A DNA stretch of 64,000 bases from an uncultured archaeon (GCA_964486045.1 CAZALK010000001.1:680242-744241); one strand, 5' to 3'; counted from the first letter of the stretch, positions 15,796 to 35,478 are shown. Made by a program: numbers and translations. The notes: generated by a model from the sequence alone, not told the origin.

Positions 15796-18700
15796 TTGAC
15801 TTACATTAAAAAAATATCCATGACTGGTTTCAAATCATTTGGAGACCGTACCGTAACAATAAAACTCTCAAGTGGTTTTACTTGCATAGTGGGGCCTAAC
15901 GGGGCTGGAAAATCCAATATTATTGATGCCTTGTGCTTCGCCTTAGGAAGATTAAGTAAGAAAACAATGAGAGCCAAAAGCCTGGAAGATTTGATTTTTG
16001 CTGGATCTCGTGGTAAGAATCCTTCCCAAAGAGCATCAGTCACGATGTTTTTTGATAACTCTGATAATATTTTTCCAGGAGGTACTGATACTTTTGAGAT
16101 TACTCGTACAATAAAAAGAGGAGGGGGCGGTGGTTACAAGATGAATGGAACAAAGTCTACCCGCCAACAAATTCTGAATGCATTAGCCGCCGCAAATATT
16201 GATCCTGATGGCAGCAATCAATTTGTCTTACAAGGAAAGATCGTTGAGTTAACTCATATGAATGCTGAAAGACGAAGATTTTTCATTGAAGACCTTATAG
16301 GACTTCAAAAATACGATGAAATGAAAGATTCTACATTGAAAGAACTAGAAAAAGCAGAAAGAGATTTGGGGCAATTTGAAGCAATTTTCAATGAAGTATC
16401 GTCTCAACTTAAAAAAGTTGAAAAAGAGAAAAATGACGCGCTATTATGGAAGGAGTTTGATGAGCAAATAAACTCTTTAAATTCTCAGTTAATTGCATTA
16501 AAAATATTAAAATTGAGGGATGAAGAAGATGATTTGGAAAAGAAAATTGAATCTTCTTTAAAAATTACTGAAGAATTAAAGGAAAAAATTAATCGACAAG
16601 AATCTTTACTTACACAAGAATCACTTGTTATGGATAACATTCAAACAACAATAAACGAGAAGGAAAAGGAAAAAGAAGAAATAACTGAGGTTATTACTCA
16701 ACTAAAAACCAAAATTTCTTCCAACCAAACAACATCAAACATCGCTGAACAATCAATAGCAAAAGTGCATAAAGAAATAGAAAATCTAACAAAAATGCAA
16801 ATGAAACTCGAACAAGGTCAAACTATTGATATCTTAATGGAAGGTGTTGTATATGATATTAATGAATGCGAAAATAAAATCGAAGAAGCTAAGAAAGAAA
16901 TCGAGAAAAGACAACAAACCCAATCAGAGCTAGATTCTAAAATAAAAAATAATGAAGAAGAAAAATCATTATTCAATAGTGACATCTCAAAAATACGACA
17001 AGATATTTCATCAAATAATGCTCAAATTAAAGTGTTAAAGGATAACATCAAGAAGAATGAAGATAAGAAGGTTAAGTTAGAGGTTGAATTGAATAAACTA
17101 AAAAAAGACGCTGAAAGTATAGATGAAGCTATTGATGATGCAAAGAAGGTAGAAAAAGTAATAAGATCACAGATAAATAATTTAAAAACTCAACTCGTTG
17201 AGGAAAATCAGAAACAAAAAGATTTGGAGAAACAAATAAATAATTTTCAAGAAGCTAAAAATCAATTAAATACAAAATTGATAAATTTACAATCTAATCT
17301 ATCATCTCTTAATACAGAGATTAATATGAATAACGGGAGTATTCAAGATTTAAACACTAAGAAGACAGATATTGAAACAAAAATTCAGGAATTGAGTAAA
17401 GGTAAAGATACAGAGGTAGTAGTAAAAGAACTATTAAGTCAGAATGAGAAAGTAAATAAGGAAATAAATGAACAAAAAGGAAAATTAAAAAAAAAAAACT
17501 CAAACTATAAAAAAAATGAGCAAGCCCTAGAACTGCTAAAAGTGAAAAAAGAATCTTTTGGATCTGAACTTAATGATAATAAAGGAAAAATAGATACCCT
17601 AAGCACAGAAGTAAAAATATTTACAAAAGAATATACGAAACTTGAACGAGAAAAAAATAGCTTAGATTTACAGGTAAACACATTAAATAAAAATATTTTA
17701 AATATAGAAGATGAATTAGAGAAATTTAGTCGAAAAAAGGATAATGTCCAAGGACGCTTAGAAGACCTTTCAAAAGAGAAAGAAAATTTATTAAAGAAAG
17801 TAGAATCTTCCGAAATGGAATATGAGAAGAACGCTACAGATATTACTGGAATTCTACAGATATTAAATATGCTTACTCAAAACATTAATATCTCGGTTGA
17901 ATCCATTAAAGGTAATATACAACAATCTAATGCAGAGGCAATCGAGACATCTGCTGAAGATTTTAAAAAATATGTTTTGGATATTGTCGACATTATGAAA
18001 ACAGTTGAAGAACTTGGTAGTGAAACAGAACAAGTAACTGAAACGTCAATGATGCTCAAGTCTATTATGAAAACTCTAAAATTGTTCACTGATAATGCCG
18101 ATGGTACGATTTTTCAATTAATTGAGAAAGTTAAAGAATCAGCAGATGTAGAAATTCAATCTTCCACAATGACTTTTGATAATTTCGTTCAAGATCTCAT
18201 GGAAATCCTCGAAAATGTCTATATTTCTCTAAGAAAATTAACTATGTCGAAAAGTCAAGAATTATATAAACAATTGGAGGAAATATCTGAAAATATCAAC
18301 TCCCAAACTGGTGATTTTAATCTTATAGAAAAGAGATTAACAGAAATTAATATCCAAACAAAATTCTATACTGAAAATGCTTCATCAATTAATCGTAGAC
18401 TTGATGAAATCAACAAAAGGAATCTGGAATTAAATGAGAGAATTTCAAAATCAAATCAAGAAATAAATGTAAGAACTGGTGTTATAAACGAGAGGAAAAA
18501 GGAGAAAGAAAATATTGAGCAAGAAATACAAAAATTAGAGGGTATTAAAGAGACTTTTTGGGATGATATATCGAAAATCCAAGATAATATTGAGAAAAAA
18601 CAATTAGATTTAGAAAATTCAAGAGATAAATTGCACGAATTACATGGAATCCAAAATTTGTTTGAGAATATAGTGGAAATCGAAGAAAATATCCAAAAAC

Positions 18701-20250
18701 TAAATAGCATAATTGATGAAAAGAAAAATATAATCATTAATACACAAGAAATTATAGAAAAGTATCAAGAGGAACAAAATTCATTACAAAATGATATTGA
18801 TGCTCTCGCTTTAAAAAAAGATAATTTTTGGGAAATGACAAGTAGTATTCAGAAACAGATAGGAGATAGAAATAAAGAACTAGAAGAAGTCATGGATCGA
18901 TTGAGAGCACTTGAAAATGTTATGAGGACAATTAACACAATTGAAGACATAACAAATGAAAATGTTGAAGCAAAAGATAATATTGAAATTAGTCTAAAAC
19001 AAATAAATGAGTTTAATTCTCAAGTAGATGAAATACAAACTAAAGTAGATCAAACCCAAAAGATAGTAGATTCACTCAGAAATGAAAAAATTAAGGAATT
19101 AGAATCACAAAAGAGTGCCCAAAAAGAATTAAATAAAATTAATAAGGATTTACAAAAACACCAAAAAAAATTAAATGAGTTAAATAAAAATAAGGAAAGA
19201 GAGCAAAAAATTGTTGAATTGAATCAAGAGATAGTAGAGACTGAAAAGCAAATACGATCGGTATTAAAAGAATTGGAATCTTTTAGAGGTGAGTTGGATT
19301 CAGAAAGTGTGAAAAAAGATGCCAAACAAGATGAAATTGATAGATTAGCCAAAGAAAAGGATAATTCTTGGAAGAAACAGAAACAACATCAAAAAATGAT
19401 TTCTGATTTTAAGTCAGATCTTTCAATGGAAAATTCTAAGAAGAACAATTTTGAATCCAAAAAAATCATCTGCGCTGATCAAATAGAAACATACTTCCAA
19501 AGATCTAAGGAATATGGTTCTTTACCACCTGTTACTGAAGACCTCTCGGAAGGTGAATTGCAATCAGATATTGTTGAAGCAACAAATAATAAAAAAGTCC
19601 TTGAACCTGTTAATTTAAAGGCAATTGAACAATATGATGCAGTAAAGGAAAGATTTGATGAAATTGACATGCGTAGGCAAACAATTCAGAGAGAAAGGAA
19701 ATCAATTCTAGATGCTATAGATAAAATTGAGCTGGAAAAAACGCGTACATTCATGAAATCTTATCATGAAATAAATCGTGAATTTTCACGGGTATTTCAG
19801 AAATTATCTCCAGGAGGTTCAGCAAAAATGATACTAGATCGTCCCGATAAACCGTTTGAAGGAGGAATTAGTATAGAAGCGAGACCAAGAGGTAAAAAGA
19901 TTAGTTCACTTGAAATTTTAAGCGGTGGTGAAAAAACGCTCGTGGCTCTCTCATTTATCTTTGCCGTCCAGGAATTCTATCCCGCGCCTTTTTACGTTTT
20001 AGATGAGATCGATGCGGCTCTCGATGGTCCTAATGTACACAGAACGTCTGTGGTCATACAGGAATTTTCAAAACAAGCGCAATTCTTGGTTATTAGTCAT
20101 AGAGAGGAGAATATCGTAAATTCTGATAGAATTTATGGCGTCACTATGCAACAATCAGGCGTAACAGATATCTTTAGTGTCGATTTGGAGGAAGAAGCAA
20201 AACGGTTATTAGATCTTGAAGATATCGAGCCTACCATTGCAGAAAACTAA
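15796..20250 (+). CDS. smc: Chromosome segregation ATPase Smc (extended arms, non-canonical hinge)
   Basis: GFKSF, GPNGAGKSN, Q-loop VLQG, LSGGEK, LDEIDAALD, ISH; long coiled coils. Confidence 0.93.
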   Translation: MTYIKKISMTGFKSFGDRTVTIKLSSGFTCIVGPNGAGKSNIIDALCFALGRLSKKTMRAKSLEDLIFAGSRGKNPSQRASVTMFFDNSDNIFPGGTDTFEITRTIKRGGGGGYKMNGTKSTRQQILNALAAANIDPDGSNQFVLQGKIVELTHMNAERRRFFIEDLIGLQKYDEMKDSTLKELEKAERDLGQFEAIFNEVSSQLKKVEKEKNDALLWKEFDEQINSLNSQLIALKILKLRDEEDDLEKKIESSLKITEELKEKINRQESLLTQESLVMDNIQTTINEKEKEKEEITEVITQLKTKISSNQTTSNIAEQSIAKVHKEIENLTKMQMKLEQGQTIDILMEGVVYDINECENKIEEAKKEIEKRQQTQSELDSKIKNNEEEKSLFNSDISKIRQDISSNNAQIKVLKDNIKKNEDKKVKLEVELNKLKKDAESIDEAIDDAKKVEKVIRSQINNLKTQLVEENQKQKDLEKQINNFQEAKNQLNTKLINLQSNLSSLNTEINMNNGSIQDLNTKKTDIETKIQELSKGKDTEVVVKELLSQNEKVNKEINEQKGKLKKKNSNYKKNEQALELLKVKKESFGSELNDNKGKIDTLSTEVKIFTKEYTKLEREKNSLDLQVNTLNKNILNIEDELEKFSRKKDNVQGRLEDLSKEKENLLKKVESSEMEYEKNATDITGILQILNMLTQNINISVESIKGNIQQSNAEAIETSAEDFKKYVLDIVDIMKTVEELGSETEQVTETSMMLKSIMKTLKLFTDNADGTIFQLIEKVKESADVEIQSSTMTFDNFVQDLMEILENVYISLRKLTMSKSQELYKQLEEISENINSQTGDFNLIEKRLTEINIQTKFYTENASSINRRLDEINKRNLELNERISKSNQEINVRTGVINERKKEKENIEQEIQKLEGIKETFWDDISKIQDNIEKKQLDLENSRDKLHELHGIQNLFENIVEIEENIQKLNSIIDEKKNIIINTQEIIEKYQEEQNSLQNDIDALALKKDNFWEMTSSIQKQIGDRNKELEEVMDRLRALENVMRTINTIEDITNENVEAKDNIEISLKQINEFNSQVDEIQTKVDQTQKIVDSLRNEKIKELESQKSAQKELNKINKDLQKHQKKLNELNKNKEREQKIVELNQEIVETEKQIRSVLKELESFRGELDSESVKKDAKQDEIDRLAKEKDNSWKKQKQHQKMISDFKSDLSMENSKKNNFESKKIICADQIETYFQRSKEYGSLPPVTEDLSEGELQSDIVEATNNKKVLEPVNLKAIEQYDAVKERFDEIDMRRQTIQRERKSILDAIDKIELEKTRTFMKSYHEINREFSRVFQKLSPGGSAKMILDRPDKPFEGGISIEARPRGKKISSLEILSGGEKTLVALSFIFAVQEFYPAPFYVLDEIDAALDGPNVHRTSVVIQEFSKQAQFLVISHREENIVNSDRIYGVTMQQSGVTDIFSVDLEEEAKRLLDLEDIEPTIAEN

Positions 20251-20316: not shown

Positions 20317-23300
20317 TTAGATTCCTTTTCTGCATTTCCTACAAGGTTCAATGTTTTGGTTAACTAACCGTTTAAAGTATTTGGGGGTTATAGTAAACTG
20401 ATGTTGCCTCTGACATGTAATCTGTACTTTTTTAGTGTTGTTTACGTATTCAGAGAGGAGTTTATATTTCAAAAATTCGATCATCTGGACCAATTCTTTT
20501 TTAGCGGTTTGTAGTCGTTCTTTATTCGGATGGTTTTCATCTGCACAGATTTTACACCATCTTCCTTGGTATACAGCACCGGGGGTGGTGTTCCATTTGT
20601 GGTTTTTGTTACATTTTATAGTGATAGGTTTGAACCGTCCACTATACTGGGTAACAAGCTCCCCTCCCCTTTTCCTAACAAAGTGTTGAAATTTTTCAGC
20701 AAATACATCCCTATTGCATTTAGGGCACAGAATCTCAATTTTTTTAAAGTCCTTTTTTAACCAATACGGTGATTTTTCAAATTTATGTCCTTTCTGACAC
20801 CTGTATGTTATTAGGGTTTTAGCATTAACGTACTCACTAATTAAATCACAATTAAACATTTTCCCTATTTTTTGAAAAAACACTGTTGTCCCTTTCATAT
20901 TTCCCGCACATTCTGAACACCAGTTACCCATGTATACAGAATTTGGGGTGGTTGTCCACTGATGTCCTTTTTCACACATGAGAGTTACTTCTTTTCTCGC
21001 TGAGAAATAGGGTGTTATTAAAGCTCCGTCTTTCTTTTTGACATATGTTCTAAATTTTTCAGCATATTCATTTTCATGAATAATGAATTCTTTATAATCA
21101 TATCTAGGGATGTTTTTAAGAGTTTTTCCACTTATCCTTTCATATTCTTTTATAATATATTCTTGCATTTTATCGTAAGGTACAATTTCATCATCAGGAA
21201 TTTGAAGTAAAACTACATTGTTTTCTCCACATTTTTTTAATTTTAGAGCATCCTCTCTCATAATCTTTTGGAGTTCTTCATCTGTCATGCCAAAAGCTTT
21301 CTTCCGATGTTGTATTCCCTGATATTCAAATGCTAATCTTAAGTCTTTGCTATTTCCATCGAGTTCCATTTGATTACCGTTCTCATTAGTTAGCCACTCA
21401 GGATAACTTTTTGGAAAGGGTCTTTTAAAAAGCTTTTCAAAAAACCTTCTACAAATTGTCTCACTAATATATATATGACAATCCGGGCACCATGTATTAG
21501 AATAAACCACGCTATTATATGTAGTAAAAAAGTGATGTCCTTCAGCGCATTCAAGGTGTAGTTTCGACTTGGCATTTTTTAAGACTTTTGTATGACATTT
21601 CCCACCCTTTTTTTCTGCAATTTTCATTACAGTATCTATTGAAACATGTTTCTGTGTTCGGACATATTGCTGATATTCCTCTTTAGTTAAAATCCTATTT
21701 AATTGATTTCGAGTGGAGGTATCGCTTAACAAAAGCCATTCTTGTATATCGTATGCGTTATATTTCCCTGGATTCTCCAAAATTTGTGTTTTAATCACTT
21801 TATTCAAGATGTCATTATCTCTAATTTTTATTATTAGATCAGAAAAATTCAGGAGTACTTTTATCTGATCTTTAATAGAGTTAGTTTTATCATCTGTAGA
21901 AAAATTCACTAATTGTGTTTGTTTCACCTTTACAAAGTTTATAAAAGTCTTGGTTGGACGGAAATTTTTTATCCAATTACCAGATTTGTTAAATTCTGTA
22001 ATAAATTGTTTTATTAACTGATTTTCATGTATATAATGTAAAAATTCTTCAAATAGATCATACTCTTTCACATACGATTGTGAATATTGTTTGTTGAGGT
22101 AAGTAACTAACATATTTTTTTTTATATATTCATAATAATCCCAGCCCCATTTTACGTAGTTTTTAGTATGCTTTTCAAATGCATCTCCAAAAATTCCGAT
22201 TAATTGATTAATATGAAGTTTTTTCAAAATTGAAGCTATAATTTTTATATCTTTGTCAGTAAGGTCTTTTTTTCGTATTATTTGGTTCAATTGTGATTTA
22301 GACTCTTCACTTAATTCTTCTATAGATGTTAGCTTATGTCTTAATAATTCCTTCCAGTCTTTACTGACCAAGGATAGATTTTCATTTTTTCCTCTTTTTT
22401 CAGTTTCTTTAAGTTTCTTTAATTTTTGAGTTAGATGCGTGGTGAATCTTAGTTTTTCAGCAAGAATTTCATGTTTAAACCACCTAATTTTATTATTATA
22501 AAATGTTTGAAAAGCGCTCAGGTTTTTAAACATTTCTTCTTGGATATTAGTCATTTTTTCAAGCTTTTTACTTAAATTCTCAATTATTTCAATGTCGTCA
22601 TTTGTAGGGTTTGCTTTATTCAATAATTTAATTAATTTCTCGTATAACAGTCTATAGTAACGATATTTCTGAATTATATCTATCAATTCTTTTTTGTTTT
22701 CCCCTGAAATATCATCTTCATTAGCTTGTTGAATCCAATTCTCTAGTAGAACTTCCCAGTTTTCTTTTGATTTTTCAATTTCTTTTTTCACCTTCTTCTT
22801 TTGAGCTAAATTCTTTTGTTTCTCCAACCATTTTAAAAATTCTTTGGTTTCTTTTTTAGCATAAAGGGGTCTTTTACCTGTGTCCTGACGGTATTTCTGT
22901 TGTAGCTCTTTTTTCATTTCTTTGTTTTTTTGACTTTTCTGGTTGCTTTTTTGACGCTGTTGAGTAATAATCTTGCTTGTTGATGTTGGTTTTTGTGGTT
23001 GTATTTCATTTTTTAGAAGTTTATCCTTTTTTTTATTAGATTTCTCACTGGGTATTTTTTTAACAACCTTTTTATTTTCAGAAGAAATTTTTTTTTCAGA
23101 TTTTTCCGCTGGTTTTTTTGCTTGCTTTTTAATAAGCTCCGATTCCCCAAATTCCTTAGGATCGGTAATTAGTTCTAGACTTATTACTCTCTTAGGTCTC
23201 TTTTTCTGGGATGATTTTTCAGACGTCTCCTTTTTATTTACAGATTCTTCAGATTTTTTTTGACTATTAGCAGTTTTCGATTCACCAAGCTCTCCGGGAT

Positions 23301-24702
23301 CAGTTGCTAACTCAAGATGCTTTACTTTTATTTTTATTTTTTTTGAGTTTTTCGTTGTTTTTTTTGTTTTCTTTTCCGATTTTTTAGGATGGTTTTGAGG
23401 TAATTTGTAGTCATATTTTGTATTAACTATATGACTATATTCATAATGTTTATAATCCCCAAGCTCCTCGGGATCTGTGATGACCTCAAGTTGCTTGATT
23501 TTCTCCGGTTTTTTTTTGGGAGTTTTTTGTGGTTTCTTTTTTTTTGTCTTCTTCTCTTGTTTTTGAGGTTTCTTATGAGAAAAAATATAGTCGTACTTTG
23601 TTCCAACTATATGACTATATTCATAATGTTTATAATCCCCAAGCTCCTCAGGATCAGTAATTAATTCTAGCTCTTTAGCCTTAATTCGCTTTTTTTTCTG
23701 TTCTCTCTTTTGGATTTGTTCAGGAACTAGCTCAGGTTCTTGTTTGGGAGACTGTTCAGATTCTTGCTCAGATATTAATTCAGGTTCTTGTTTAGGAGTC
23801 TGTTCAGATTCTGGGGATATTTCCCCTTGCTGTTGATCATACATTTTTTCAAGCAAATCTTCAAGAGGTATTAATTCTGGGTCTGGTTGATGAGGAACAG
23901 GCTCCCCATTATCAGGATTTATGAGCTCCAGTTCTTCAAGTTCTCTTTCAGCTTCTTGTTCGGGCTCATTTTCAGATTTTACCTCAGGAGTTTGAGCAAT
24001 TTCATTTTCTGCTGTTTGATCCGATTCGATCTCACGGTCTTCCTCTGTTTCATAATCTCTTTCTGGATAAGTTGGAATGCCCATTTCCTCTAAATCTCCA
24101 AACATTTCAGTAACTTTTTGGGGATCTGCAGGAGGCATAGGTTCACCATCGGGATAAACCAATTCCGGATCTTCTTCAGATTGTTCTGAATCTTGGTCAT
24201 GTTCGCTTTCAGATTCTTCCTCAGGTTCATGGTCAGTTTCTTGATCTGGTATTTGATCAGGTTCATTGTGAATCGTAATAGTAACAGTTCCAGAATGATT
24301 TGGGTTGAGATTTCCATCAGAGTCTGATCCTAGATCATCATTAGGTTTTTCTTCGTTTGGGTTGAAGCTCTCTTCCTCTGGAATCTCATCTGATTCATCT
24401 ACATTGGGATTAAAATCATCCTCATCTGGGATTTCATCTGACTCATCTACATTTGGATTAAAATCATCCTCATCCGGGATTTCATCTGACTCATCTACAT
24501 TTGGATTAAAATCATCCTCATCCGGGATTTCATCTGACTCATCTACATTGGGGTTGAAGGAATCTTCATCTAAGGTCTCATCGGATTTATCAGAAATCTT
24601 TCCTTCCTCAGCTTCATCAGGACTATCTCCACTTTTTAAGGAGTGAATAATTTCAGGTCTATCGGGTCCAATATCGGAATCTAAAAAATCTAGATCTGTC
24701 AA
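20317..24702 (-). CDS. Large repeat-rich protein with C-terminal repeated Zn-ribbon modules and PD-(D/E)xK-type endonuclease
   Basis: Acidic then Lys-rich low-complexity N-terminus; five C-x2-(G/N/Q)H...C-x2-C modules; ELDG...LAFEYQGIQH nuclease motif. Confidence 0.8.
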   Translation of the reverse strand: MTDLDFLDSDIGPDRPEIIHSLKSGDSPDEAEEGKISDKSDETLDEDSFNPNVDESDEIPDEDDFNPNVDESDEIPDEDDFNPNVDESDEIPDEDDFNPNVDESDEIPEEESFNPNEEKPNDDLGSDSDGNLNPNHSGTVTITIHNEPDQIPDQETDHEPEEESESEHDQDSEQSEEDPELVYPDGEPMPPADPQKVTEMFGDLEEMGIPTYPERDYETEEDREIESDQTAENEIAQTPEVKSENEPEQEAERELEELELINPDNGEPVPHQPDPELIPLEDLLEKMYDQQQGEISPESEQTPKQEPELISEQESEQSPKQEPELVPEQIQKREQKKKRIKAKELELITDPEELGDYKHYEYSHIVGTKYDYIFSHKKPQKQEKKTKKKKPQKTPKKKPEKIKQLEVITDPEELGDYKHYEYSHIVNTKYDYKLPQNHPKKSEKKTKKTTKNSKKIKIKVKHLELATDPGELGESKTANSQKKSEESVNKKETSEKSSQKKRPKRVISLELITDPKEFGESELIKKQAKKPAEKSEKKISSENKKVVKKIPSEKSNKKKDKLLKNEIQPQKPTSTSKIITQQRQKSNQKSQKNKEMKKELQQKYRQDTGKRPLYAKKETKEFLKWLEKQKNLAQKKKVKKEIEKSKENWEVLLENWIQQANEDDISGENKKELIDIIQKYRYYRLLYEKLIKLLNKANPTNDDIEIIENLSKKLEKMTNIQEEMFKNLSAFQTFYNNKIRWFKHEILAEKLRFTTHLTQKLKKLKETEKRGKNENLSLVSKDWKELLRHKLTSIEELSEESKSQLNQIIRKKDLTDKDIKIIASILKKLHINQLIGIFGDAFEKHTKNYVKWGWDYYEYIKKNMLVTYLNKQYSQSYVKEYDLFEEFLHYIHENQLIKQFITEFNKSGNWIKNFRPTKTFINFVKVKQTQLVNFSTDDKTNSIKDQIKVLLNFSDLIIKIRDNDILNKVIKTQILENPGKYNAYDIQEWLLLSDTSTRNQLNRILTKEEYQQYVRTQKHVSIDTVMKIAEKKGGKCHTKVLKNAKSKLHLECAEGHHFFTTYNSVVYSNTWCPDCHIYISETICRRFFEKLFKRPFPKSYPEWLTNENGNQMELDGNSKDLRLAFEYQGIQHRKKAFGMTDEELQKIMREDALKLKKCGENNVVLLQIPDDEIVPYDKMQEYIIKEYERISGKTLKNIPRYDYKEFIIHENEYAEKFRTYVKKKDGALITPYFSARKEVTLMCEKGHQWTTTPNSVYMGNWCSECAGNMKGTTVFFQKIGKMFNCDLISEYVNAKTLITYRCQKGHKFEKSPYWLKKDFKKIEILCPKCNRDVFAEKFQHFVRKRGGELVTQYSGRFKPITIKCNKNHKWNTTPGAVYQGRWCKICADENHPNKERLQTAKKELVQMIEFLKYKLLSEYVNNTKKVQITCQRQHQFTITPKYFKRLVNQNIEPCRKCRKGI
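23415..23670 (-). repeat. Two-copy coding direct repeat (ITDPEELGDYKHYEYSHIV.TKYDY), 180-bp spacing
   Basis: actatatgactatattcataatgtttataatccccaagctcctc at about 23426 and 23606. Confidence 0.9.
24358..24570 (-). repeat. 48-bp coding tandem repeat (NPNVDESDEIPDEDDF, about 4.5 copies)
   Basis: ctcatcYgggatttcatctgactcatctacattKggattaaaatcatc repeated head-to-tail. Confidence 0.95.
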
Positions 24703-24708
24703 AATTGA

Positions 24709-26709
24709 TCACCTGAATCGATTTGAATACTTATATTCAGGCGTTTTAACAACAAAAATTTCTTGATTACTTCCATTTATAATAAGCGCATAACGAGGAT
24801 TTTGGAGAATAAGGTACTCTTGAGTTTTTAGATTATTAGTAAATAGCTTGCTATCTAAATGGCTAAGGCTGAATAGTATTTTAAGGTTTGGTAAGCTTAA
24901 AGCACAACTAAATAACCGATGGGGGGTATTATCTGAAATGAAGAATGATAATCCTTTACTCCGAAACTCTCTTATTAAATTGTTAAATATTAATTCCAAT
25001 TGCTCTCGTGAGATAAAATCATCCGCATTAGGGTTTGTCGTGATTGGTAATTCTAATATTTGGTAGGCTTCTTCAATCACTATTATGTTTTGAAGTTTAC
25101 CTGCTTCCACATCAGGAATAAGGGTTTTGACCATTTGAAAAATCGCATTAGACAATAATCTTTTAACATAAATATCACACATGGATAAATCAATAAAAAT
25201 TGTTTTTCCATTTCTCCAATCATTAAACCATTTAGGGATATTGTTAATCTGTAATAATTCTAAGGTCTTCTTCAGAATAGGATCAGAGAGAAGGGAAGGA
25301 ATCCGATTTTGTAGAGCTCTTAGAATATAGGTCTGATATTTCTTATGATATGGGTGTTCTATGAAATATTTTTTCAACCCATTAAACAAAGTCTTTAATG
25401 ATCGTGGTAAAGATCCATTTACTTTTATGAAAGCTTTCATTACAACATACAATATCTTATCAGAAGGACTTCCAAGCCCAAGAGATGATGCCAAATACGT
25501 CGCAGTTTCTTGAAGTGACTTGTTTAAATATTCTCCTTCATAAAAATAACTTAAATGTAAATCTGAAGATCCATACTTAAGAATTTTATCGGTAGTATAG
25601 AATCCCTCTTGTTTACCTTTCCCCAGGTTCAAGATTAGAATCCCAATATCAGGAGCATTATTATAAAATTGATTGCAAATATGACCTAATAGATAAGTCT
25701 TTCCTGCACCCGTTTGACCTCCAATAAAAACACTATTTGCAAAATGAGTTGTCGGCAGAGATTTGATTATCTTAGTTTCTACTCCATTAACTACAATATT
25801 ACCAATTGAGATGGAATTCTTATCACTAATAGAGGAATAATTAATATTAACGAGAGGGGGACTATATGATTTTTGTAATGGTAAATCATCTGAGAAAGTG
25901 AAGTCAACCTCATCAGGGCTAATAAATGCCGGAACTCTCTCTTCAGGTAATTTGCCATAAATATAACAATAATAAGCGCCAGTATTTTGATTTTTATCAT
26001 TAATCCAAAAGACGTTAGAACTCATTATTTTTTCCCAAGTGTTAAGACGAGTTTTTTTAATGCAAGCACGCTCTCCTATTAAATTTCTTATACCCATAGT
26101 TAAATACTCCAATTTAGCCTCAAGTTGTACCGTCTTTAACTTATTATTATCAAGCTTATTATCTTGTATAATTCTAATAAAGATCTTGAGTTTATACATT
26201 TCAAATACAGAAACCTTGTCATATTTGTGAATATGAATTGAATCATCCTTTTGCCAGAATATATAGAATTGAAATACGTTAGTGTCCCGCATTTTAAATA
26301 ATTGGATAATCTTCTTGATGATATGAAATTTATCTCCCTTTAAAAATGGAATTCGAGGGAGAACTAGTTCATAAGTGGGGAATTCTTGTTTTAAAATAAA
26401 TAGACCAATTGGTAGAGCTGAGACTTCACCCGAAAGTCCAAGGAATCTTTCTTCTAAATTCATAAGGAACGAATACCCCCTTTTTAGGGCTTTTGATTCG
26501 GTTTCAGCATACATAATAAAGATGAATGAAAAGGTCTTGTTCAGTGTGAGTTCCAAACCATATACAGTTTGGTCTAGAAAAGGATCAAAAAGCCACGACA
26601 TGTCGATTTTAGCACCGTTGTGAGTTCTAGGGTTTACGAATTCTTGCGTTTCTAATTTAGTTGGGATTTGCGTAATTTTTACTCGTGCTTGCCAAAATTT
26701 TGTTTCCAT
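24709..26709 (-). CDS. HerA/FtsK/VirB4-like (DUF87) ATPase
   Basis: Walker A GGQTGAGKT, Walker B IIVIEEA, REFRSKG arginine finger; start moved to ATG 26709 after SD GAGGGG. Confidence 0.85.
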   Translation of the reverse strand: METKFWQARVKITQIPTKLETQEFVNPRTHNGAKIDMSWLFDPFLDQTVYGLELTLNKTFSFIFIMYAETESKALKRGYSFLMNLEERFLGLSGEVSALPIGLFILKQEFPTYELVLPRIPFLKGDKFHIIKKIIQLFKMRDTNVFQFYIFWQKDDSIHIHKYDKVSVFEMYKLKIFIRIIQDNKLDNNKLKTVQLEAKLEYLTMGIRNLIGERACIKKTRLNTWEKIMSSNVFWINDKNQNTGAYYCYIYGKLPEERVPAFISPDEVDFTFSDDLPLQKSYSPPLVNINYSSISDKNSISIGNIVVNGVETKIIKSLPTTHFANSVFIGGQTGAGKTYLLGHICNQFYNNAPDIGILILNLGKGKQEGFYTTDKILKYGSSDLHLSYFYEGEYLNKSLQETATYLASSLGLGSPSDKILYVVMKAFIKVNGSLPRSLKTLFNGLKKYFIEHPYHKKYQTYILRALQNRIPSLLSDPILKKTLELLQINNIPKWFNDWRNGKTIFIDLSMCDIYVKRLLSNAIFQMVKTLIPDVEAGKLQNIIVIEEAYQILELPITTNPNADDFISREQLELIFNNLIREFRSKGLSFFISDNTPHRLFSCALSLPNLKILFSLSHLDSKLFTNNLKTQEYLILQNPRYALIINGSNQEIFVVKTPEYKYSNRFR

Positions 26710-26722
26710 CAAATTTTCCCCT

Positions 26723-27484
26723 CTATTTGTTTGTATTGTAATATGAATGTCTTTCTTTTTCAGGATTATGTCTACGGCGTGAATATCTTTTAAAATTATT
26801 TCTATTTGATAGCTTTTCTGCAGCATATATATTTTTATAGAACAAATTACCAACGAAATGAAATCCGTACTTAAACACAAAATAAAATCCTGTAACTATT
26901 AAATATATAAGGAATTCATGAAACCCTTGTAAATAAAATACAGTAACACTTATAAACGTTAATAGAATTGATAATCCAATTAATAAAATCTGATACATTG
27001 AATGATTGAAATTATTTAGAAATGTTTTGGGAATAATTAAGAAATCCGTAAATGAGGGAGCCGCAGAAAGTGAAATAGAAATCATTATAAAAATAAAAAC
27101 AAAGAAAAATACTGGTTCTACTTGGGAATATAGAAGAGTTTCAAGTAAAAAGAAAAAAAGCCAAAATAAGATATAAAGCGGAGCTAACCCTATCAGAACT
27201 GCTTGTAAAAATGAAATTCTATGTGCTTGAACCTCTACTTCTCCATAGTATCCAAGCCTTCCTTCTTCCTTAAAATCTAATTTCTTAACAAAAGTTACAT
27301 TTTCTATAGGAGAACGAGTTATTATACACATAAGATAGTGGCATAATTCATGGATGACAATTCCTGCCACTGCTAAAACCTTAATAATGTCAGAAAATGG
27401 TGGAGGCACATATTTAAAAGCTAGATAAGAAAATATCACTGAAAATATCATAAACCCGATGATATATGGTATTTCTTCAAACAT
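26723..27484 (-). CDS. Membrane zinc metallopeptidase (M50/M50B-like)
   Basis: HELCH within a TM segment, G.V, IGLAP, PS..D third-ligand motif; about 6 TM helices. Confidence 0.8.
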   Translation of the reverse strand: MFEEIPYIIGFMIFSVIFSYLAFKYVPPPFSDIIKVLAVAGIVIHELCHYLMCIITRSPIENVTFVKKLDFKEEGRLGYYGEVEVQAHRISFLQAVLIGLAPLYILFWLFFFLLETLLYSQVEPVFFFVFIFIMISISLSAAPSFTDFLIIPKTFLNNFNHSMYQILLIGLSILLTFISVTVFYLQGFHEFLIYLIVTGFYFVFKYGFHFVGNLFYKNIYAAEKLSNRNNFKRYSRRRHNPEKERHSYYNTNK

Positions 27485-28516: not shown

Positions 28517-29692
28517 ATGGCTAAGAAGGGTAAGAAAGCAGAAAAAATTATTAAAGAATTTAACGAAAACATTGAATCTTTTACTGAAAATCTCACCATT
28601 CTAATGGAAAAAATTACTACCTATTTAGACACTACCAATAAATTAACTCTACTCGGTAGTCTATCGAACCACTCTCAAGAAACTCAAAACTTTCATAACG
28701 ATCTTCAAAAAAACGGTCTTGGGATCTTTCTCTGGTTTGAAAATGAATATCCAAATATATCAATGGTTTTTGATCAGTGTGGATTTTTACCCACCGTGGT
28801 AAAAATAAAGGATGTTAGGAAATGCATTGATGAGTATAACCAATTGATAAATCAAACTAACCAAAAATATAAAAATTTGATGAGATTAGAAACTCAAGAA
28901 TCACAAGAACTATTTAATAATACACATCTAGATCCTATCAAAAATCTCATTGTTAAATCTCATTTATGGCGAAAGATTGATGAAAATACAGTAATTTATA
29001 TAGATATATTCTTTAAAACTCTACCTGCTTTAACAATTTATATCGAATTGTTGTCAAAAGTAATAAGAATTGAATCAGCAAGACTTAAAGTATCAAAACG
29101 TAGAAAAGGAACAAAAAATGTATTTAAATCAACTGAACAACTGTTTAAGAGAATAAATAAGGAATTTTATAAAAAATGTCCCGAAAAAATTATAAAAGAT
29201 ATTCAAGAGCTGGGAGATTTTGGTAAAGAAATTACGGATAATTTAGATTATATTAAAGAACATAAAAGAGAAGAATTTTATAATTTGCTAGAGCTATCGA
29301 AGGATTTACACGAATTTCACATCGATTTAGTTAAATATGTATTACGTCTTTGGCACATCAATAAATATGGTAATAGGGATTATGTTAACAACTACAAAAT
29401 TAAACACCAATTTCCAAACATAAATTCAATCATTAATTTTTATATTAAACAACAGTTAATGCCCAATTTCCCAAATTTAAGCCGAATACTAATAGGGTTC
29501 TTCTTCCCCTTTGAAAAATATCGTCATATAGAATCTCATTCTGCCCCAAATTTTGAATTATCTGGTGATGAGAAATATATTTTTATTCCCCAAAAGGGAA
29601 AAAAAAGTAAGATAAAAGTAGATATAGGTGAATTTCAGACGCATATAAGAACTTATCAAAGTTTTATAGAAGCTATAGGTTTATATCGATAA
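28517..29692 (+). CDS. Helical protein with C-terminal HEPN-like motif
   Basis: YRHIESH (R-x4-H) near the C-terminus; SD GAGGTGA. Confidence 0.55.
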   Translation: MAKKGKKAEKIIKEFNENIESFTENLTILMEKITTYLDTTNKLTLLGSLSNHSQETQNFHNDLQKNGLGIFLWFENEYPNISMVFDQCGFLPTVVKIKDVRKCIDEYNQLINQTNQKYKNLMRLETQESQELFNNTHLDPIKNLIVKSHLWRKIDENTVIYIDIFFKTLPALTIYIELLSKVIRIESARLKVSKRRKGTKNVFKSTEQLFKRINKEFYKKCPEKIIKDIQELGDFGKEITDNLDYIKEHKREEFYNLLELSKDLHEFHIDLVKYVLRLWHINKYGNRDYVNNYKIKHQFPNINSIINFYIKQQLMPNFPNLSRILIGFFFPFEKYRHIESHSAPNFELSGDEKYIFIPQKGKKSKIKVDIGEFQTHIRTYQSFIEAIGLYR

Positions 29693-29694
29693 TC

Positions 29695-30237
29695 TTATGC
29701 CTTCTTTTTAATAACTAATGTGTGGTAATCTCCTTTTATATTTTCTGAAAATTCATTTGAAGTGTAGTTAAACCCTCTTATTTCACCATCTCCAGGATCA
29801 AAAAATAATAATTCAGTATCATTATATTCTACTGCTGTCCTTATATGAGCAACTTCCGCGTCTTGCCATCCAATAGGTTTGGGGTTATTCTTCTCCATTA
29901 TGGGGACTTTTATCATTTGTTTAAATGAAACTAAAACGGGTGTTTGGTTATCAATATTAGATTTAATATAGTCCACAACTTCTCTAAGTGAATGATTAAA
30001 ATCACCGATCCCTTTAAAAATAAATTCAAAATCTTTTAAAATTTTTGCTAATTCGGGACTAAGTTCTTTAAAGCCTAATGGTATGCTTCTCGTTTGACAA
30101 AAATACAACAATTTCAGTTCATCATAATTACTTTCTCCATAATATTTAAGAGCATTTTCTATGTTAACAGGTATACAACCTGCTGATGAATGCATTTGAA
30201 TTATTTTTAGATATTTTTCAAAATCGATTTTTGGCAT
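29695..30237 (-). CDS. C39-like papain-fold peptidase
   Basis: Q....GC, AH...V.Y, FFDP (Cys-His-Asp triad). Confidence 0.75.
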   Translation of the reverse strand: MPKIDFEKYLKIIQMHSSAGCIPVNIENALKYYGESNYDELKLLYFCQTRSIPLGFKELSPELAKILKDFEFIFKGIGDFNHSLREVVDYIKSNIDNQTPVLVSFKQMIKVPIMEKNNPKPIGWQDAEVAHIRTAVEYNDTELLFFDPGDGEIRGFNYTSNEFSENIKGDYHTLVIKKKA

Positions 30238-30352
30238 AAATGATTATTGGATAATTTTGTATAAAAAATTTGTCTTTTCTTTTTACTACCTGGCATTCCT
30301 CTAAACATTTTGGTTAAACTCGTTAGATTTAGATGATTCTACAATTTTTTAA

Positions 30353-30655
30353 TTATTCTGTTATTTCAAATGTTAATTTCATAGATTCCAGATATTCTTT
30401 TAACGGTTTTTTAACCTTAGGGAATTTATCACTTAAATAAATATAATCTTCTCGCTGTAAATCTACATAAGTACGTATTAAATCTTTCACAATTGCGTCT
30501 CTAATAAACTTCTTTGGTTTTATCTCAACAGTTTTGCAATAAATGTTTACAGCTTGAGCAAATTCTTGGGATAGTCGTAATGTGAATTTTGTACTAACAA
30601 TCTTCTTTCTAACAATAACTACCTTCTTAACCATATGTTTCAGTTTCAACTTCAT
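30353..30655 (-). CDS. Ribbon-helix-helix DNA-binding protein
   Basis: KFTLRLSQEF...YC......KKFIRDAI pattern. Confidence 0.65.
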   Translation of the reverse strand: MKLKLKHMVKKVVIVRKKIVSTKFTLRLSQEFAQAVNIYCKTVEIKPKKFIRDAIVKDLIRTYVDLQREDYIYLSDKFPKVKKPLKEYLESMKLTFEITE

Positions 30656-30789
30656 AATGAATTAATCCTAAACTTTTCTTTTTATTTTAAAATTCAATAG
30701 AAATCTCAATAAAACTTATTTAGGAGTCTTTCCACTATTTATTTGAAGAAAAAAATCGAGGAATTAATTATTAATAAGTGAATTAACGA

Positions 30790-32157
30790 ATGAAGTTACA
30801 TCAAAATAAAAACAATTTGACATATAGTTATAATACAATTGATATTAAAGAAGCACTTACAAAATTGTCAAACCTTTTAATACTATTTCCATATCATCCT
30901 AGGAAATCTAAAATAGAGAATATAGGATGGTTAACTCCTCAAAAATTATTTCGTAAAAGTGATATCCCAAAAAGACCCTTTTGTGGCATTATTGAAACAT
31001 GTCATAGAAAAGGTTTTCCAGTGTTTAGAGATTGGCTTAATTATATTGAAAATAAAAGTCGAGATAAAAAAAACGTCATAGAAATTAGGAAAAAATTGGT
31101 AAATCATTTAAATGAGTGTATAAAAAATATTGGGTATCAAGAAGAAAATTCAAGAATAATTCTCAATAATCAATTTAAGGAGTTGTATATATGGATTAAA
31201 ATAATGTATGATAAAATCAACTATCTTAAGAATAAAGGGTGTTGGAGTTCAGAATTCTTACAGCAATTAAGAAGAAGAAAAGAAATTTGGGATGCTTACA
31301 AGCAATATCGCAAGATCAAAGCCAAGAAGAGGAGAAAAAAAGTTGATCAATATAATCAAAAAATGGAAGAATTAACGAAAGATGATAAAATTGATGCCTA
31401 TCTTAATAAATTATTCCCAATGAGTTATGACCAATATAAGATAGAAAGAAAACTTCCCAAAAGTTCTTCAGAAAAGGAAATACTAAGATGTAAATTAGTA
31501 AGAACTGAGTATAATTCATATGTTGCAAATTCTCTCTATGATGAGAAGCTTCCCTTAGAAATAATATTTACAAAAATTTTTCATTTCAAACATAACTTAA
31601 AAGAATTTAATATCTTAACTCCACAAGAATTTGATAATTTTATTAATGAAATATTACAATTAATGGGCTATGATTGGGTATCTTGTATTAATGGCGAATT
31701 AATGCTTATAGGATATAGTATAGAAGAAAAAGAGGAAAAAGAAGTCTTTAGATATTTAAAGAAATATCGAAAAGTAATCGAGAATCTTGAAAAAGCCAAA
31801 CAACACATATTGGAAGCAGACTGGAATAGTGTCCCTTTATATTGTTGTAAGGCTATTGAGCACTTTTATAAAAATTTATTAGGACAAAAAAAAGAATTTG
31901 AAAAATACTCAATATCTAGATTAACTCAAAAATTAATAGAGGAAAAGAATATAAATTCTCTCTTTAAAAATTCATCTATTGATATTAACGACGGAATAAA
32001 CCAGCTATTACAATCGGGGAAAAATTTAATTGGAACTCTTAGGAATAGGAAAGATTCAGCTCATGGTAATCTCCTTGATGTAGAAAATTGGGAAGCTAGA
32101 CTAAGTTATAGTTATACTATTTTATTATTGAAGACATTAGAGCTAATTAAGAGTTAA
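30790..32157 (+). CDS. Abortive-infection-like protein with C-terminal Abi_C/HEPN domain
   Basis: LEKAKQHI...CKAIE and GTLRNRKDSAHG motif. Confidence 0.72.
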   Translation: MKLHQNKNNLTYSYNTIDIKEALTKLSNLLILFPYHPRKSKIENIGWLTPQKLFRKSDIPKRPFCGIIETCHRKGFPVFRDWLNYIENKSRDKKNVIEIRKKLVNHLNECIKNIGYQEENSRIILNNQFKELYIWIKIMYDKINYLKNKGCWSSEFLQQLRRRKEIWDAYKQYRKIKAKKRRKKVDQYNQKMEELTKDDKIDAYLNKLFPMSYDQYKIERKLPKSSSEKEILRCKLVRTEYNSYVANSLYDEKLPLEIIFTKIFHFKHNLKEFNILTPQEFDNFINEILQLMGYDWVSCINGELMLIGYSIEEKEEKEVFRYLKKYRKVIENLEKAKQHILEADWNSVPLYCCKAIEHFYKNLLGQKKEFEKYSISRLTQKLIEEKNINSLFKNSSIDINDGINQLLQSGKNLIGTLRNRKDSAHGNLLDVENWEARLSYSYTILLLKTLELIKS

Positions 32158-32562
32158 TAAAAAAATGTAAAATTTCACAGTAAATTAAAAAAAATGCCTA
32201 AAATATATTTATCAATTTCTTTACTTTAAAACCTTCAATAATAATCATAGTTATTTTTTTTTCAATTCATATTAATATAATTAAATACCTCCAGCCTTTT
32301 CTGAAGTTTTAATAATAAATATAAAGCGTTAGCAATCTCTGAAAGAATTGATTTTTCTTTTAAAGGTGAAAAAGTAATTTGCAGTTTATTATTTCAAAGA
32401 TTGAAAAAACCATCACAGATTAATAAAACATTTTGAGAATATGAGTTTAAAAGCTATAAATTTAATTTTCTGGAATATCTTCAAGGTAATTAATTTAATA
32501 ATTTTAAAAGTAGAGTCAAAAATTGAGAAATACCTTACCATTTCCAAATAAATATCAAAGAT

Positions 32563-33312
32563 TTAAGCTGATTTTTGAAAGTGTGATAAATATTTTTCTA
32601 CATCTGGATATCTAGTCACAATATTTTCATCAATCAAATATATGAACTCAGCTACATCTAGCATACAGTCCTCTACTGTTTCAATATTAATTAGATCATA
32701 TTCTAAAAAGATTGCACCTGTTATCCCATGAGCAGTACGATGTCTTATGCTCATATAGCTTGTCTTATGTCTAGAATAAATTTTTGACCAGAGAACATTA
32801 TTTATTCCAGCCAAACATATATTTAACATCTTAAACGCATTTTTTAAATTATCTTTACTTTGAAGATTAAATCTTTCTGGTAAGAGAGAAAATAATCGTT
32901 TTTTACCCAAGCGTTTATAATTTTTCCTAGTTTTCTTAATCTTTCTATTAAACCTTTTTAAAAATTTCTTGAATTTATCATATGCAATATTATCAATCAA
33001 AGTTAGTTTTGATAAATGTCGAAAAAGTTTTGTCAAATAGATTTCTAATGAAGTAATAGTCAATAATATAGCTATTTGGGTGAAGGAGTAATATCTAAAT
33101 CTCTGATTATTTTTCTTCGCATCTAAAATGATAGAATATATTAATAAAACACGATTAAAATGAACAATATTTTCGCTAAACGCGACTGAGTGAGTTTTAA
33201 AAATAGTAGGGTAGCTATATTTAAGGGAATTTTGGTTAATTTCTTCTACCTCTGCCTCAACTATATTATATTGAGATAACTCCTTTTTTAATTCTACTAA
33301 ATTACCAATCAT
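32563..33312 (-). CDS. HEPN domain protein (putative RNase)
   Basis: TSLEIYL N-terminal helix, NLQ, IRHRTAHG (R-x4-H). Confidence 0.7.
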   Translation of the reverse strand: MIGNLVELKKELSQYNIVEAEVEEINQNSLKYSYPTIFKTHSVAFSENIVHFNRVLLIYSIILDAKKNNQRFRYYSFTQIAILLTITSLEIYLTKLFRHLSKLTLIDNIAYDKFKKFLKRFNRKIKKTRKNYKRLGKKRLFSLLPERFNLQSKDNLKNAFKMLNICLAGINNVLWSKIYSRHKTSYMSIRHRTAHGITGAIFLEYDLINIETVEDCMLDVAEFIYLIDENIVTRYPDVEKYLSHFQKSA

Positions 33313-33534
33313 GATTTTGAATATTTGGAAATTACATTATTCTAATTAGAAATTATAAAAGAACCCTTTCTATCAATTAAAGATAGAACCATTTATTAAA
33401 TATCTTAAAGATCTTTTTTAAAAAAAGATGATTTTAATTGAATCCTTAAAAGATTCATTATTAATTGTGATTTAATTTTATTAATATAAAAAAGTATGTG
33501 AAATAATGATGAAAATGTCAAAAAAGAGGAGAAG

Positions 33535-34452
33535 ATGTATTCAATGAGTGATTTAAGATCAAAAATAAAAGGAATATCCATTTCAGATTTGATTGGAAAA
33601 AATAAAGAAGTAAAAGGTAAATTTAAGGAATGGTTTTTCAAACCGCCATTTAGTAAGAGTAAGTTATCAATGATTCATCCCCTAATTACGGATAAAGCTC
33701 CACTCTTAGGAACTGCTTTCGATTATCTACTCCGTTTTATATTACAATATTCAAATTCTAAGGTGAAAACCATGGTTTGGGCTGCAGAAAAGACCTTATT
33801 AGACTCTAGGGTTAGAAAAATCATTAAACGCTTCAATCCAGAAGCTAATGAACAATTAATAGAATCTTGGCTAAAAGAAGGTAAAACATTATTAACAATT
33901 GCAAAGGAAAACCATTCAAAATTCCTGAAGGATGGGGAAATTACAGGAGATTTGTTGAGATCTTGCCTTCATCTGGCGAAATTGGATGTACTTCATAGAA
34001 GAGGAATTATAGTTAGATTTGATGATATCAATGCTGGAGATATTAAAGATTTACGCTCCTTAATCAGTAATATTCGGATGGAGCAATTCCATGTAGATGA
34101 CGTGTGTTTATTAAGTCCTACTTTCAGCAACGCGACTAAAATCTCTGGCATTGACGGTGAAGCAGATCTTGTATTGGATGATACCTTGATTGATATAAAG
34201 ACCTATACTAGTCCAAAATTTGAACGGAGGTTTTTTGATCAATTAATGGGATATTATCTTCTTTCGAAGATCGGAGGGATTGATGGAGCCCCCGAAAATC
34301 ATGAAATCAATAAGATAGGCATATACTTCTCTCGGCATGAATACCTGCATGTAATAAATGTAAAAGATGTTTTTAATCAATCTGATTTAAGCTCAATTCT
34401 AGGTTGGTTTATTGCCAAAGGAAATGAGATTTCTGGATTGAAAGTAAGTTGA
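33535..34452 (+). CDS. PD-(D/E)xK superfamily nuclease
   Basis: GTAFDYLLR, GEADLVLDDTLIDIKT, QLMGY, YFSR. Confidence 0.78.
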   Translation: MYSMSDLRSKIKGISISDLIGKNKEVKGKFKEWFFKPPFSKSKLSMIHPLITDKAPLLGTAFDYLLRFILQYSNSKVKTMVWAAEKTLLDSRVRKIIKRFNPEANEQLIESWLKEGKTLLTIAKENHSKFLKDGEITGDLLRSCLHLAKLDVLHRRGIIVRFDDINAGDIKDLRSLISNIRMEQFHVDDVCLLSPTFSNATKISGIDGEADLVLDDTLIDIKTYTSPKFERRFFDQLMGYYLLSKIGGIDGAPENHEINKIGIYFSRHEYLHVINVKDVFNQSDLSSILGWFIAKGNEISGLKVS

Positions 34453-35078
34453 AACGGTTACAATATCAAAAGTTGATAGAAATTTTGATAGAGTAATCGG
34501 ATCGGACAAGTTTATTGAATGTGATACATTATTGTTATCGGTAGGATTAATACCTGAAAATGAATTGACTAGAGAAGCAGGAGCGAAAATCTCCAAAATG
34601 GGAGGCCCCGTTGTAGACAACAATTTAGAAACCACATTAGAAGGAATCTTTGCTTGTGGCAACGTACTACAAGTTCATGACTTAGTTGACCTTGTTACGG
34701 CCGAAGCAAAGCGAGCGGGATTAAATGCAATTGACTATTTAACTAATAGATATAGAAAAAAAACAGAAAAGAGATATTATAATTAAGTGCAAATCTGGAG
34801 AAAATGTTAATTATGTTAAGCCTGATCTAATAAAAAAATCTGATTTATCAAAAGGCATTATATTCCATTTTCGGGTCAAACAACCAGATAGAAGAATTCT
34901 AATCCAATTTAAAGATAATAATAACAAGATCGTTTATGAGCGAAAAAGAAGATATGTAATACCTAGTGAAATGATTGAGTTAAGAATAAATTTAAGTGAA
35001 TACCAAATAGATCCCAATTGTAAAAGTTTAAAAGTTGAAGTAATTCCTCGTCCAGAGGTTATGATTGAAGAAGACTAA
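34448..35078 (+). pseudogene. 5'-truncated, frameshifted NAD(P)/FAD-dependent oxidoreductase (type found with GlpA-like and DUF1667 genes)
   Basis: ECDTLLLSVGLIPENEL and GIFACGNVLQVHDLVD in frame from 34448; extra A in the A8 run near 34756-34763; continues GENVNYVKP...FRV...PSEM to TAA 35078; N-terminal FAD domain missing. Confidence 0.82.
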
Positions 35079-35094
35079 ATTAAAGGTAACTAAA

Positions 35095-35478
35095 ATGTCA
35101 GAATCAAAGGTTCCAGAAGGAAGTAAAGAAATACGTTGTATTGTGTGCCCCACCGGCTGCTTCGTCCACGTTGAGAATATTTCAGGAGAACTTGTAATTG
35201 AAGGGCATTCGTGTAAAAGGGGGGAAGTATATGCTCGAGAAGAATTTATATCACCAAAACGAATTCTTACTACTACTATGAGAGTTGAAAATGGATTCTT
35301 ACCATTAATTCCTGTAAGATCTGATAAACCTATACCAAAAGAAAGACTCGGAGAAGCTTTAAAACAGATTGCATTCACTAAAATTAAAGCCCCAATTAAA
35401 ATGGGTGATGTTTTACTTAAAGATATATTAGGATTAGAGGTTAATGTCATCGCCAGTAGAGATTTAATTAAGGCTTAG
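35095..35478 (+). CDS. DUF1667 family metal-binding protein
   Basis: CIVCPTGC, SCKRG..YA..E...PKR, APIKMGD; start set to ATG 35095. Confidence 0.85.
   Translation: MSESKVPEGSKEIRCIVCPTGCFVHVENISGELVIEGHSCKRGEVYAREEFISPKRILTTTMRVENGFLPLIPVRSDKPIPKERLGEALKQIAFTKIKAPIKMGDVLLKDILGLEVNVIASRDLIKA

Follow-up and report, generated by a model that had tools for sequence, protein, structure and literature searches.

We analysed a 64,000-nucleotide (nt) stretch of the genome of an uncultured archaeon (GCA_964486045.1 CAZALK010000001.1:680242-744241; hereafter, the window), in which a trio of co-oriented genes is located immediately downstream of the host smc gene. The three genes, all on the minus strand, encode an M50-like intramembrane metallopeptidase (26723..27484, 253 amino acids (aa)), a soluble VirB4/coupling-protein-like ATPase (24709..26709, 666 aa) and a giant protein of 1461 aa (20317..24702) that is a fusion of a carrier and a nuclease. 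The coordinates of the open reading frames (ORFs) agreed with the original prediction, made from the sequence alone, of gaps of 13 and 6 nt between the genes and of an AGGTGA motif overlapping the ATPase stop. The ATPase starts with the ATG at 26709, and a longer mechanical ORF from 26880 overlaps the peptidase. The smc gene (15796..20250, plus strand) is convergent on the giant gene, with 66 nt between them, and is directly followed by scpA in empty relatives.

The trio was found in more than 20 loci across Promethearchaeota, and dN/dS values of 0.13-0.41 indicated purifying selection on all three genes; with such recurrence and selection, the arrangement is not a product of chance. The expectation of a coherent, undescribed, co-occurring module was upheld. 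No PADLOC system, NCBIfam entry or plasmid module matched the trio, including among 72,556 plasmids (PLSDB) searched by sequence. The genome of the window (G000) totals 5.18 Mb; other G numbers denote relatives, C numbers contigs of G000 and L numbers loci. All readings on cleavage, homing and transfer are based on sequence comparison and predicted structure.

Exchangeable nuclease modules on a shared carrier

The giant protein has the predicted organization of a repeat N-terminus, a helical core and a zinc-ribbon nuclease. All of its parts lie on the minus strand. The disordered carrier N-terminus (22936..24702), recognized by its charge profile, contains acidic 16-aa repeats (~24355-24591) and then a Lys-rich middle of further repeats. 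The conserved helical carrier core (22108..22935, aa ~590-865) holds the motif quoted in the prediction and is present in 26 of 48 ATPase-adjacent partners. The exchangeable nuclease module (20317..22107, aa ~866-1461) comprises a helical region, zinc-ribbon repeats and a Vsr/EDxHD-like core. The nuclease matched a PHROG endonuclease family (E 1.8e-46) and a PHROG homing-endonuclease family (E 1.4e-5), and E1081, D1115, E1126 and H1132 are conserved across the aligned relatives. No PDB sequence match was found for the nuclease core, nor an Atlas or NCBIfam match for the carrier core. In most loci, the gene after the ATPase encodes an acidic N-terminus. The carrier motif also occurs, as a single copy, at the end of a 256-aa host membrane protein (G000:C2:150504-151274), from which the carrier may have originated or to which it may bind.

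Comparisons between partners confirmed that a conserved N-terminus and core are combined with a variable C-terminal nuclease. The paralogue on C31 has a core 95% identical to that in the window up to aa ~865 and is unrelated beyond this point, where it carries an HNH tip. The peptidase and ATPase are 98-100% identical to those of the window on C28 and 78-97% identical on C41. Within G000, the giant proteins end in a zinc-ribbon/Vsr-like module (window), tandem HNH (C31) or LAGLIDADG (C14 and C20), and in a related strain a block 88-93% identical has a LAGLIDADG end at a different site, so that three nuclease classes occur on carriers 88-96% identical. The complete partner tips were LAGLIDADG, Hint-LAGLIDADG, tandem HNH, Vsr-like, I-Ssp6803I-type PD-DExK and GIY-YIG-like; a few others were unassigned and one had TFIIB repeats. 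At L044:4436-9457, a carrier protein is tipped by TFIIB cyclin repeats and a helix-turn-helix (HTH), with no nuclease. The same Vsr-like nuclease end was seen on a 5217-aa surface-type protein (G000:C4:281939-297592), and another giant protein (L239:6732-10424) has a LAGLIDADG end.

A conserved N-terminus with a swapped C-terminal nuclease is shared with polymorphic toxins, to which the original prediction had compared the protein. In the usual sense of the term this likeness did not hold, as nearly all recognizable tips are homing-type DNases, each tied to one host gene. LAGLIDADG, HNH, Vsr-like, PD-DExK and GIY-YIG are the main homing-endonuclease classes and differ from the repertoire typical of toxins. 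Among ~30 complete tips we recognized no RNase, no deaminase and no other toxin that is not a DNase. As had been noted for the window, where smc is convergent, no cognate immunity gene follows the nucleases: across 28 loci no small gene or immunity family recurred at this position, and in 19 of them the next ORF matched a host gene at at least 48%.

Insertions between smc and scpA

The flank of smc was surveyed in 30 genus relatives. In 23 of them smc is followed by scpA, and the other 7 have an insertion between the two genes, which in every case starts with this nuclease or a piece of it. The nuclease orthologues (67-83% identity) follow the smc stop in 8 of the 8 cases with an available flank, with a 185-aa ORF intervening in one. 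More distant nuclease clades each flank their own host gene, HNH and LAGLIDADG subtypes alike. When the flanking-gene labels on the nuclease tree were shuffled 200 times and label changes counted, the observed 3 changes were the minimum and none of the 200 shuffles was as low. The insertions are scattered on the host smc tree, with six changes, four of them forced.

Comparative analyses of the 3' end of smc point to its replacement. At codon ~1410, the identity of smc to its counterpart in G013, the nearest host relative, drops from 0.86-0.93 to 0.74-0.81. The in-use tail (20020..20250, plus strand, codons 1409-1484) groups with that of G004, a carrier of the element (99/87), and the smc remnant on C28 groups with G013 (98/84). 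By this identity drop and tail phylogeny the in-use tail is foreign and would be an element-borne, presumably cleavage-resistant allele. In G008 and G018, a single contig carries smc and the convergent nuclease, then unrelated cargo, after which smc codons 1409-1484 are repeated ahead of scpA; the same remnant lies before scpA on C28. The native-tail remnant begins at codon 1409 in G000, G008, G018 and L069, and ~110 nt of non-coding sequence before it are conserved in four lineages; this conserved right end is not common to the elements at other target genes in G000. Amino-acid variation in the otherwise near-invariant SMC head peaks at codons 1412-1425. Element alleles have more residues off consensus than other smc alleles (4.7 vs 1.1) and a higher GC content at third codon positions (0.41 vs 0.23), with p ~7e-4 for both among kin that are not independent.

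The metagenome contig L069 holds in one piece the remnant, the right end, DarT-type cargo, a gene with two transmembrane (TM) segments, the peptidase, the ATPase and the carrier, which places the trio inside the smc element. The layout obtained by comparison is a foreign-tailed smc, then on the opposite strand the nuclease-carrier, ATPase and peptidase, followed by the 2-TM gene (present on C28 and L069, missing from the window copy), variable cargo, the ~110-nt end, the native tail and scpA. The cargo upstream of the peptidase at L031:9111-11578 and L069:207-2636 includes a DarT-like toxin with an adjacent glycohydrolase-like gene, with a PADLOC match for L069. Tyrosine integrase (PF00589) matches were present in five genomes, none of them at the five smc elements. 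Serine recombinases were not seen among the cargo, where no family search was aimed at them, and no exact 18-bp direct repeats were evident by eye at three junctions. Replacement of the smc tail, which the original prediction had overlooked, would explain both the convergence on smc and the missing immunity gene.

Two sibling cassettes in G000, with HNH at a FAD-oxidoreductase (G3PDH-type) operon and with LAGLIDADG at fwdA, follow the same tail-replacement logic as judged from their remnants and flanks. The displaced 3' remnant of the G3PDH-type operon (34457..35486, plus strand) groups with the host-clade genome G028 (100/99), and the genes past it are the native downstream flank. The in-use 3' half of the operon on C31, which converges on the HNH-tipped cassette, groups with G068 (92/92), and G068 carries the same HNH nuclease. 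For the LAGLIDADG cassette, other assemblies link contigs C20, C41 and C2, which terminate at an fwdA remnant.

A single unitig carries both smc and the nuclease in the run that is the likely source, and positions 22.1-27.5 kb form a two-copy repeat of ~2x depth. Because no contig spans this repeat and the remnant at 34457-35486 belongs to the C31 operon, the window is probably a junction of two elements, its left part coming from the left half of the smc element and its right part from the right half of the HNH element, produced by an assembly switch or by real recombination; no alternative assembly resolving the join was found. The trio is not affected, since the two copies are 98-100% identical. 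Contamination as a source of the extra copies was rejected, as single-copy host genes are present on both C28 and C31 and the depth is consistent with equal copy numbers. The genes at 28517..34452 (C39-like peptidase, AbiC-like, PD-DExK and others unassigned in Pfam/PADLOC) are probably cargo of the sibling HNH element and not of the smc element. A copy of the AbiC-like region (30649-32215), 90% identical, lies on C25 in the vicinity of a further SMC-like gene. A second partial remnant of the last G3PDH-type operon gene, at 37530-37783 and 91% identical to 35234-35486, suggests repeated insertion at this site. Stacked remnants at L175 (G000:C2:6961-13387) and C18:1-716, consisting of an HNH-HTH tail, a chelatase 5' end and an fwdA 3' end, suggest nested or decayed elements.

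Recoded tails of conserved genes may also be read as the mark of an allele-specific contact weapon, in which the nuclease, exported by the ATPase, kills close relatives whose allele of an essential gene is sensitive, the recoded tail confers immunity and homing is a by-product. Such a weapon would fit the polymorphic-toxin-like architecture, a motor related to type IV and type VII secretion system folds, the conserved genes as targets and the purifying selection on the nucleases, and a phage homing endonuclease is known to act in interference competition (PMC11620839). We consider it quite unlikely, since no non-DNase toxin was recognized among the complete tips and no immunity family accompanies them, and since variable cargo, remnants and 5'-truncated copies fit the life cycle of a mobile element. 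The weapon and homing are compatible with each other.

The ATPase and the peptidase

The ATPase matches DUF87, has Walker A at residues 331-338 and lacks a TM helix, in agreement with the predicted soluble HerA/FtsK/VirB4-type enzyme. Its N-terminal region, taken at first to be ~330 aa and unknown, is instead ~290 aa and resembles a known fold. In the AlphaFold2 model (pLDDT 90.6), the motor domain matched DndH (Z 29.6, root-mean-square deviation (rmsd) 3.1, 326 aligned), VirB4 (27.3) and HerA (25.7), and also TrwB. The N-terminal domain, modelled as an alpha/beta plait, gave a middling match to TrwK/VirB4 (Z 9.5, rmsd 5.2, 219 aligned), a match to an ESX-3 chain (8.8) and a TM-score of 0.6 with DUF8128-TraD proteins; HerA was absent from its listed fold matches. 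The model is thus that of a VirB4- or coupling-protein-type ATPase, to which DUF8128-TraD fits as well as VirB4, and the N-terminal and motor domains expected of VirB4 were recognized by fold only.

Named ATPase homologues are almost all from Promethearchaeota records. In a survey of 54 genus and 68 family genomes, the ATPase was present in 24 and 26, respectively, and was rare beyond, among the genomes searched; G000 has nine matches, and viral contigs contained no relatives. In five genomes, a GIY-YIG gene and a soluble ATPase gene are located directly after a thermosome gene (L037, L040, L042, L113, L131), with the nuclease upstream of the ATPase and no peptidase. At L043, L044, L118 and L126, a ~1260-aa two-part protein with no Pfam match precedes the ATPase; it is split on C14. 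In islands at L046-L048 and G024:C7 42-79 kb, a second set of type IV pilus-like genes is accompanied by a TFB paralogue and by a membrane-anchored member of this ATPase family, and the G024 island sits inside the smc insertion of that genome. Loci L045-L048 were considered as integrative and conjugative elements with a second VirB4 and rejected, as their genes (T2SSE ATPase, A24 peptidase) resemble those of type IV pili and a similar locus is present in the host.

The motor fold, which defence HerA proteins share, the weak PADLOC matches to HerA and mad8, and defence cargo such as DarT inside the elements would suit an anti-phage HerA-nuclease system like Sir2-HerA or DUF4297-HerA, triggered by the membrane protease. 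We judge this to be very improbable. PADLOC gave no match for the peptidase or the nuclease, the N-terminal domain is closest to VirB4/DUF8128, and Pfam and PADLOC scans of the neighbours, unlike in the named systems, found no NurA, Sir2 or DUF4297 partner. Defence also cannot account for each nuclease clade tracking one host gene with a swapped tail. DNA mobilization, a side option in the original prediction, is the best-supported reading.

The peptidase is an HExxH multi-TM protein, as predicted, with H45, E46, H49 and D147 invariant among 14 homologues and about five hydrophobic segments. The HExxH lies in a membrane segment and a third Asp ligand is present, as in M50/site-2 proteases; M50/M50B matches were weak and found in 7 of the 14 homologues. 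The ATPase is directly downstream of cassette-type peptidase copies in 14 of 17 loci and of the host paralogue in 0 of 11, and the cassette peptidase derives from this near-core host paralogue. The M50-like paralogue occurs in most family genomes (L278-L288; G000:C1:196929-197678, C23:54055-54804), usually flanked by a TFB-like gene on one side and by a small membrane protein plus a RadB-like ATPase on the other, and a TFB-like gene is also found upstream in several cassettes. A group II intron reverse transcriptase was observed in the promoter region of the C41 cassette (L134:152-1651, G000 C41; L291:7806-9305), equivalent to window position ~27550.

M50 proteases cleave within or close to membrane helices. 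Such helices are absent from both the ATPase and the giant protein, so the suggestion that the peptidase releases the nuclease is not sustained, and neighbours of 72-122 aa with 2-3 TM segments, present in some loci, are likelier substrates. The peptidase therefore probably cleaves small membrane proteins and not the nuclease; Pfam gave no support for these proteins as pilins. An obligate trio is likewise not supported, as the peptidase accompanies 24 of 60 scorable ATPases and none of the 13 membrane-anchored ones. A fusion of the peptidase into the latter was rejected for want of homology.

Nucleases without ATPase or carrier are common, both at smc (G004, G008, G018, G024) and at many other genes. 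Homing may then be real and the peptidase and ATPase passengers, with free-standing homing endonuclease genes fusing to the terminal gene of a small, unrelated export operon, and the operon then hitch-hiking as cargo. Further observations in this direction are the 22 of 48 ATPase partners without the carrier core, the type IV pilus-like islands where ATPase relatives have short partners that lack a nuclease, and the unfused GIY-YIG genes upstream of the ATPase. We nevertheless find passengers rather unlikely, because a homing-type nuclease adjoins the ATPase in most complete loci across very different clades, and because near-identical blocks with unrelated nucleases at different sites would need repeated in-frame fusion at one junction. 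In addition, several stand-alone nucleases retain carrier remnants, including part of the carrier in G018.

Proposed mechanism and relation to known elements

On balance, we lean towards the trio being the engine end of a homing element that has no integrase and exchanges the tail of a host gene for its own. The nuclease would cut empty smc alleles near codons 1409-1425 and the recoded element tail would resist, so that no immunity protein is needed. The break would be repaired from donor DNA, with one end in smc and the other in the donor remnant, as the remnant phylogeny and the WHO model (below) suggest, installing the foreign tail and pushing the recipient tail downstream. This core of cutting, repair and immunity through a resistant tail is the part in which we have good confidence. 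The peptidase-ATPase-carrier block exchanges nuclease modules at aa ~865, as seen at the sequence level, and so occupies several sites (smc, the G3PDH operon, fwdA and others). The ATPase may then recognize the carrier and pass the nuclease, donor DNA or both to an adjacent cell. The channel would be formed by small membrane proteins that either are matured by the peptidase or are provided in trans; whether the block delivers nuclease or DNA between cells is, in our estimate, evenly poised. After arrival the block would often decay, leaving 5'-truncated stand-alone nucleases.

Several observations weigh against this reading. Ancestral presence followed by many losses may also be compatible with the trees. 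Both smc tails of G008 group together, no smc remnant was found in G024, and altered target codons also occur in four empty alleles (G002, G013, G025, G070), as scars or as resistance. The ATPase has EE at Walker B and DN at the downstream motif, where the family consensus is DE and DQ. No VirB6 or relaxase was recognized beside the trio, nor a confirmed pilin, and, given the many nucleases standing without ATPase or carrier, the motor may not be required.

The closest parallels are the WHO elements of Torulaspora/Lachancea yeasts (Coughlan et al. 2020, PMC7282813; bioRxiv 10.64898/2026.08.13.744650), which likewise place an endonuclease just downstream of an essential gene. In both, the element supplies a 3' end, resistant in WHO elements and presumably so here, old 3' fragments begin at one position, the phylogeny is discordant and variation is concentrated at the presumed target (PMC7282813). 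A nuclease next to its target and one-position 3' fragments were found at smc, and a discordant in-use 3' end at the smc of G000 and at the C31 operon. WHO elements encode an intein-derived LAGLIDADG nuclease fused to a zinc finger, whereas the nuclease here has zinc ribbons and a Vsr-like core, and several nuclease classes occur across the family. The present element also differs in being archaeal, with a convergent nuclease, many target genes, an ATPase, a peptidase, a carrier and kilobases of cargo, and no tandem clusters were seen at smc. With mitochondrial mORF hybrids (Allomyces atp6; Glomus atp6, atp9, cox2 and nad3; PMC3630166, PMC4019555) it shares a foreign C-terminus in use, a displaced native one and an endonuclease between the two, with no intron or integrase. 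mORFs are short, lie in the same orientation as their target, are often in frame with it and spread when organelles fuse, whereas the element here measures 7-37 kb and resides in a cell with no known fusion route.

Among free-standing genes with intronless homing, Seg and Mob of T-even phages (PMC2988022) likewise encode nucleases from intergenic positions next to conserved genes. The Vsr-like catalytic set and repeated DNA-binding modules appear to be shared with the EDxHD/Vsr family (I-Bth0305I; PMC3239194). The phage cases have no target-gene duplication, carrier or motor, and here Gln replaces Asp in the E-x-D-G motif. VirB4/TrwK, DUF8128-TraD and archaeal CedB/TedB (PMC9905601, PMC12102498) share an N-terminal alpha/beta domain with a HerA/FtsK-type motor and, with some loci here, small 2-3 TM neighbours; unlike them, our loci lack a nearby VirB6/CedA channel, relaxase or confirmed pilin and couple the motor to a homing nuclease. 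Polymorphic toxins, Sir2-HerA and DUF4297-HerA differ from the element in its host-gene site fidelity and its lack of immunity genes, with only homing-type tips recognized.

The element works like WHO elements and mORFs and is a member of neither family. To our knowledge, and in the papers found, tail-replacing homing is otherwise known only from yeast nuclei and fungal mitochondria. We found no prokaryotic description of such an element in the literature, including a paper on Asgard mobile elements (PMC11529989). The module is real, coherent and apparently undescribed, and is probably a tail-replacing homing element with a possible transfer engine. A bolder proposal, tentative and in our view less likely than not, is a self-transmissible, retargetable Asgard gene drive, in which a reduced conjugation-like machine exports the homing endonuclease with its repair template, the nuclease takes the place of relaxase and integrase, and retargeting proceeds through the exchange of nuclease modules, drawn from different classes, on a single carrier.

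The element would bring tail-replacing homing to an archaeal phylum related to eukaryotes, with essential targets such as smc and with defence and metabolic cargo moved without an integrase. It would explain mosaic 3' ends of Asgard marker genes and some fragmented assemblies of metagenome-assembled genomes. The family would be a source of many long-site nucleases, whose targets are predictable from remnant breakpoints, and it offers an idea for how relaxase-less archaea may cut and move DNA.

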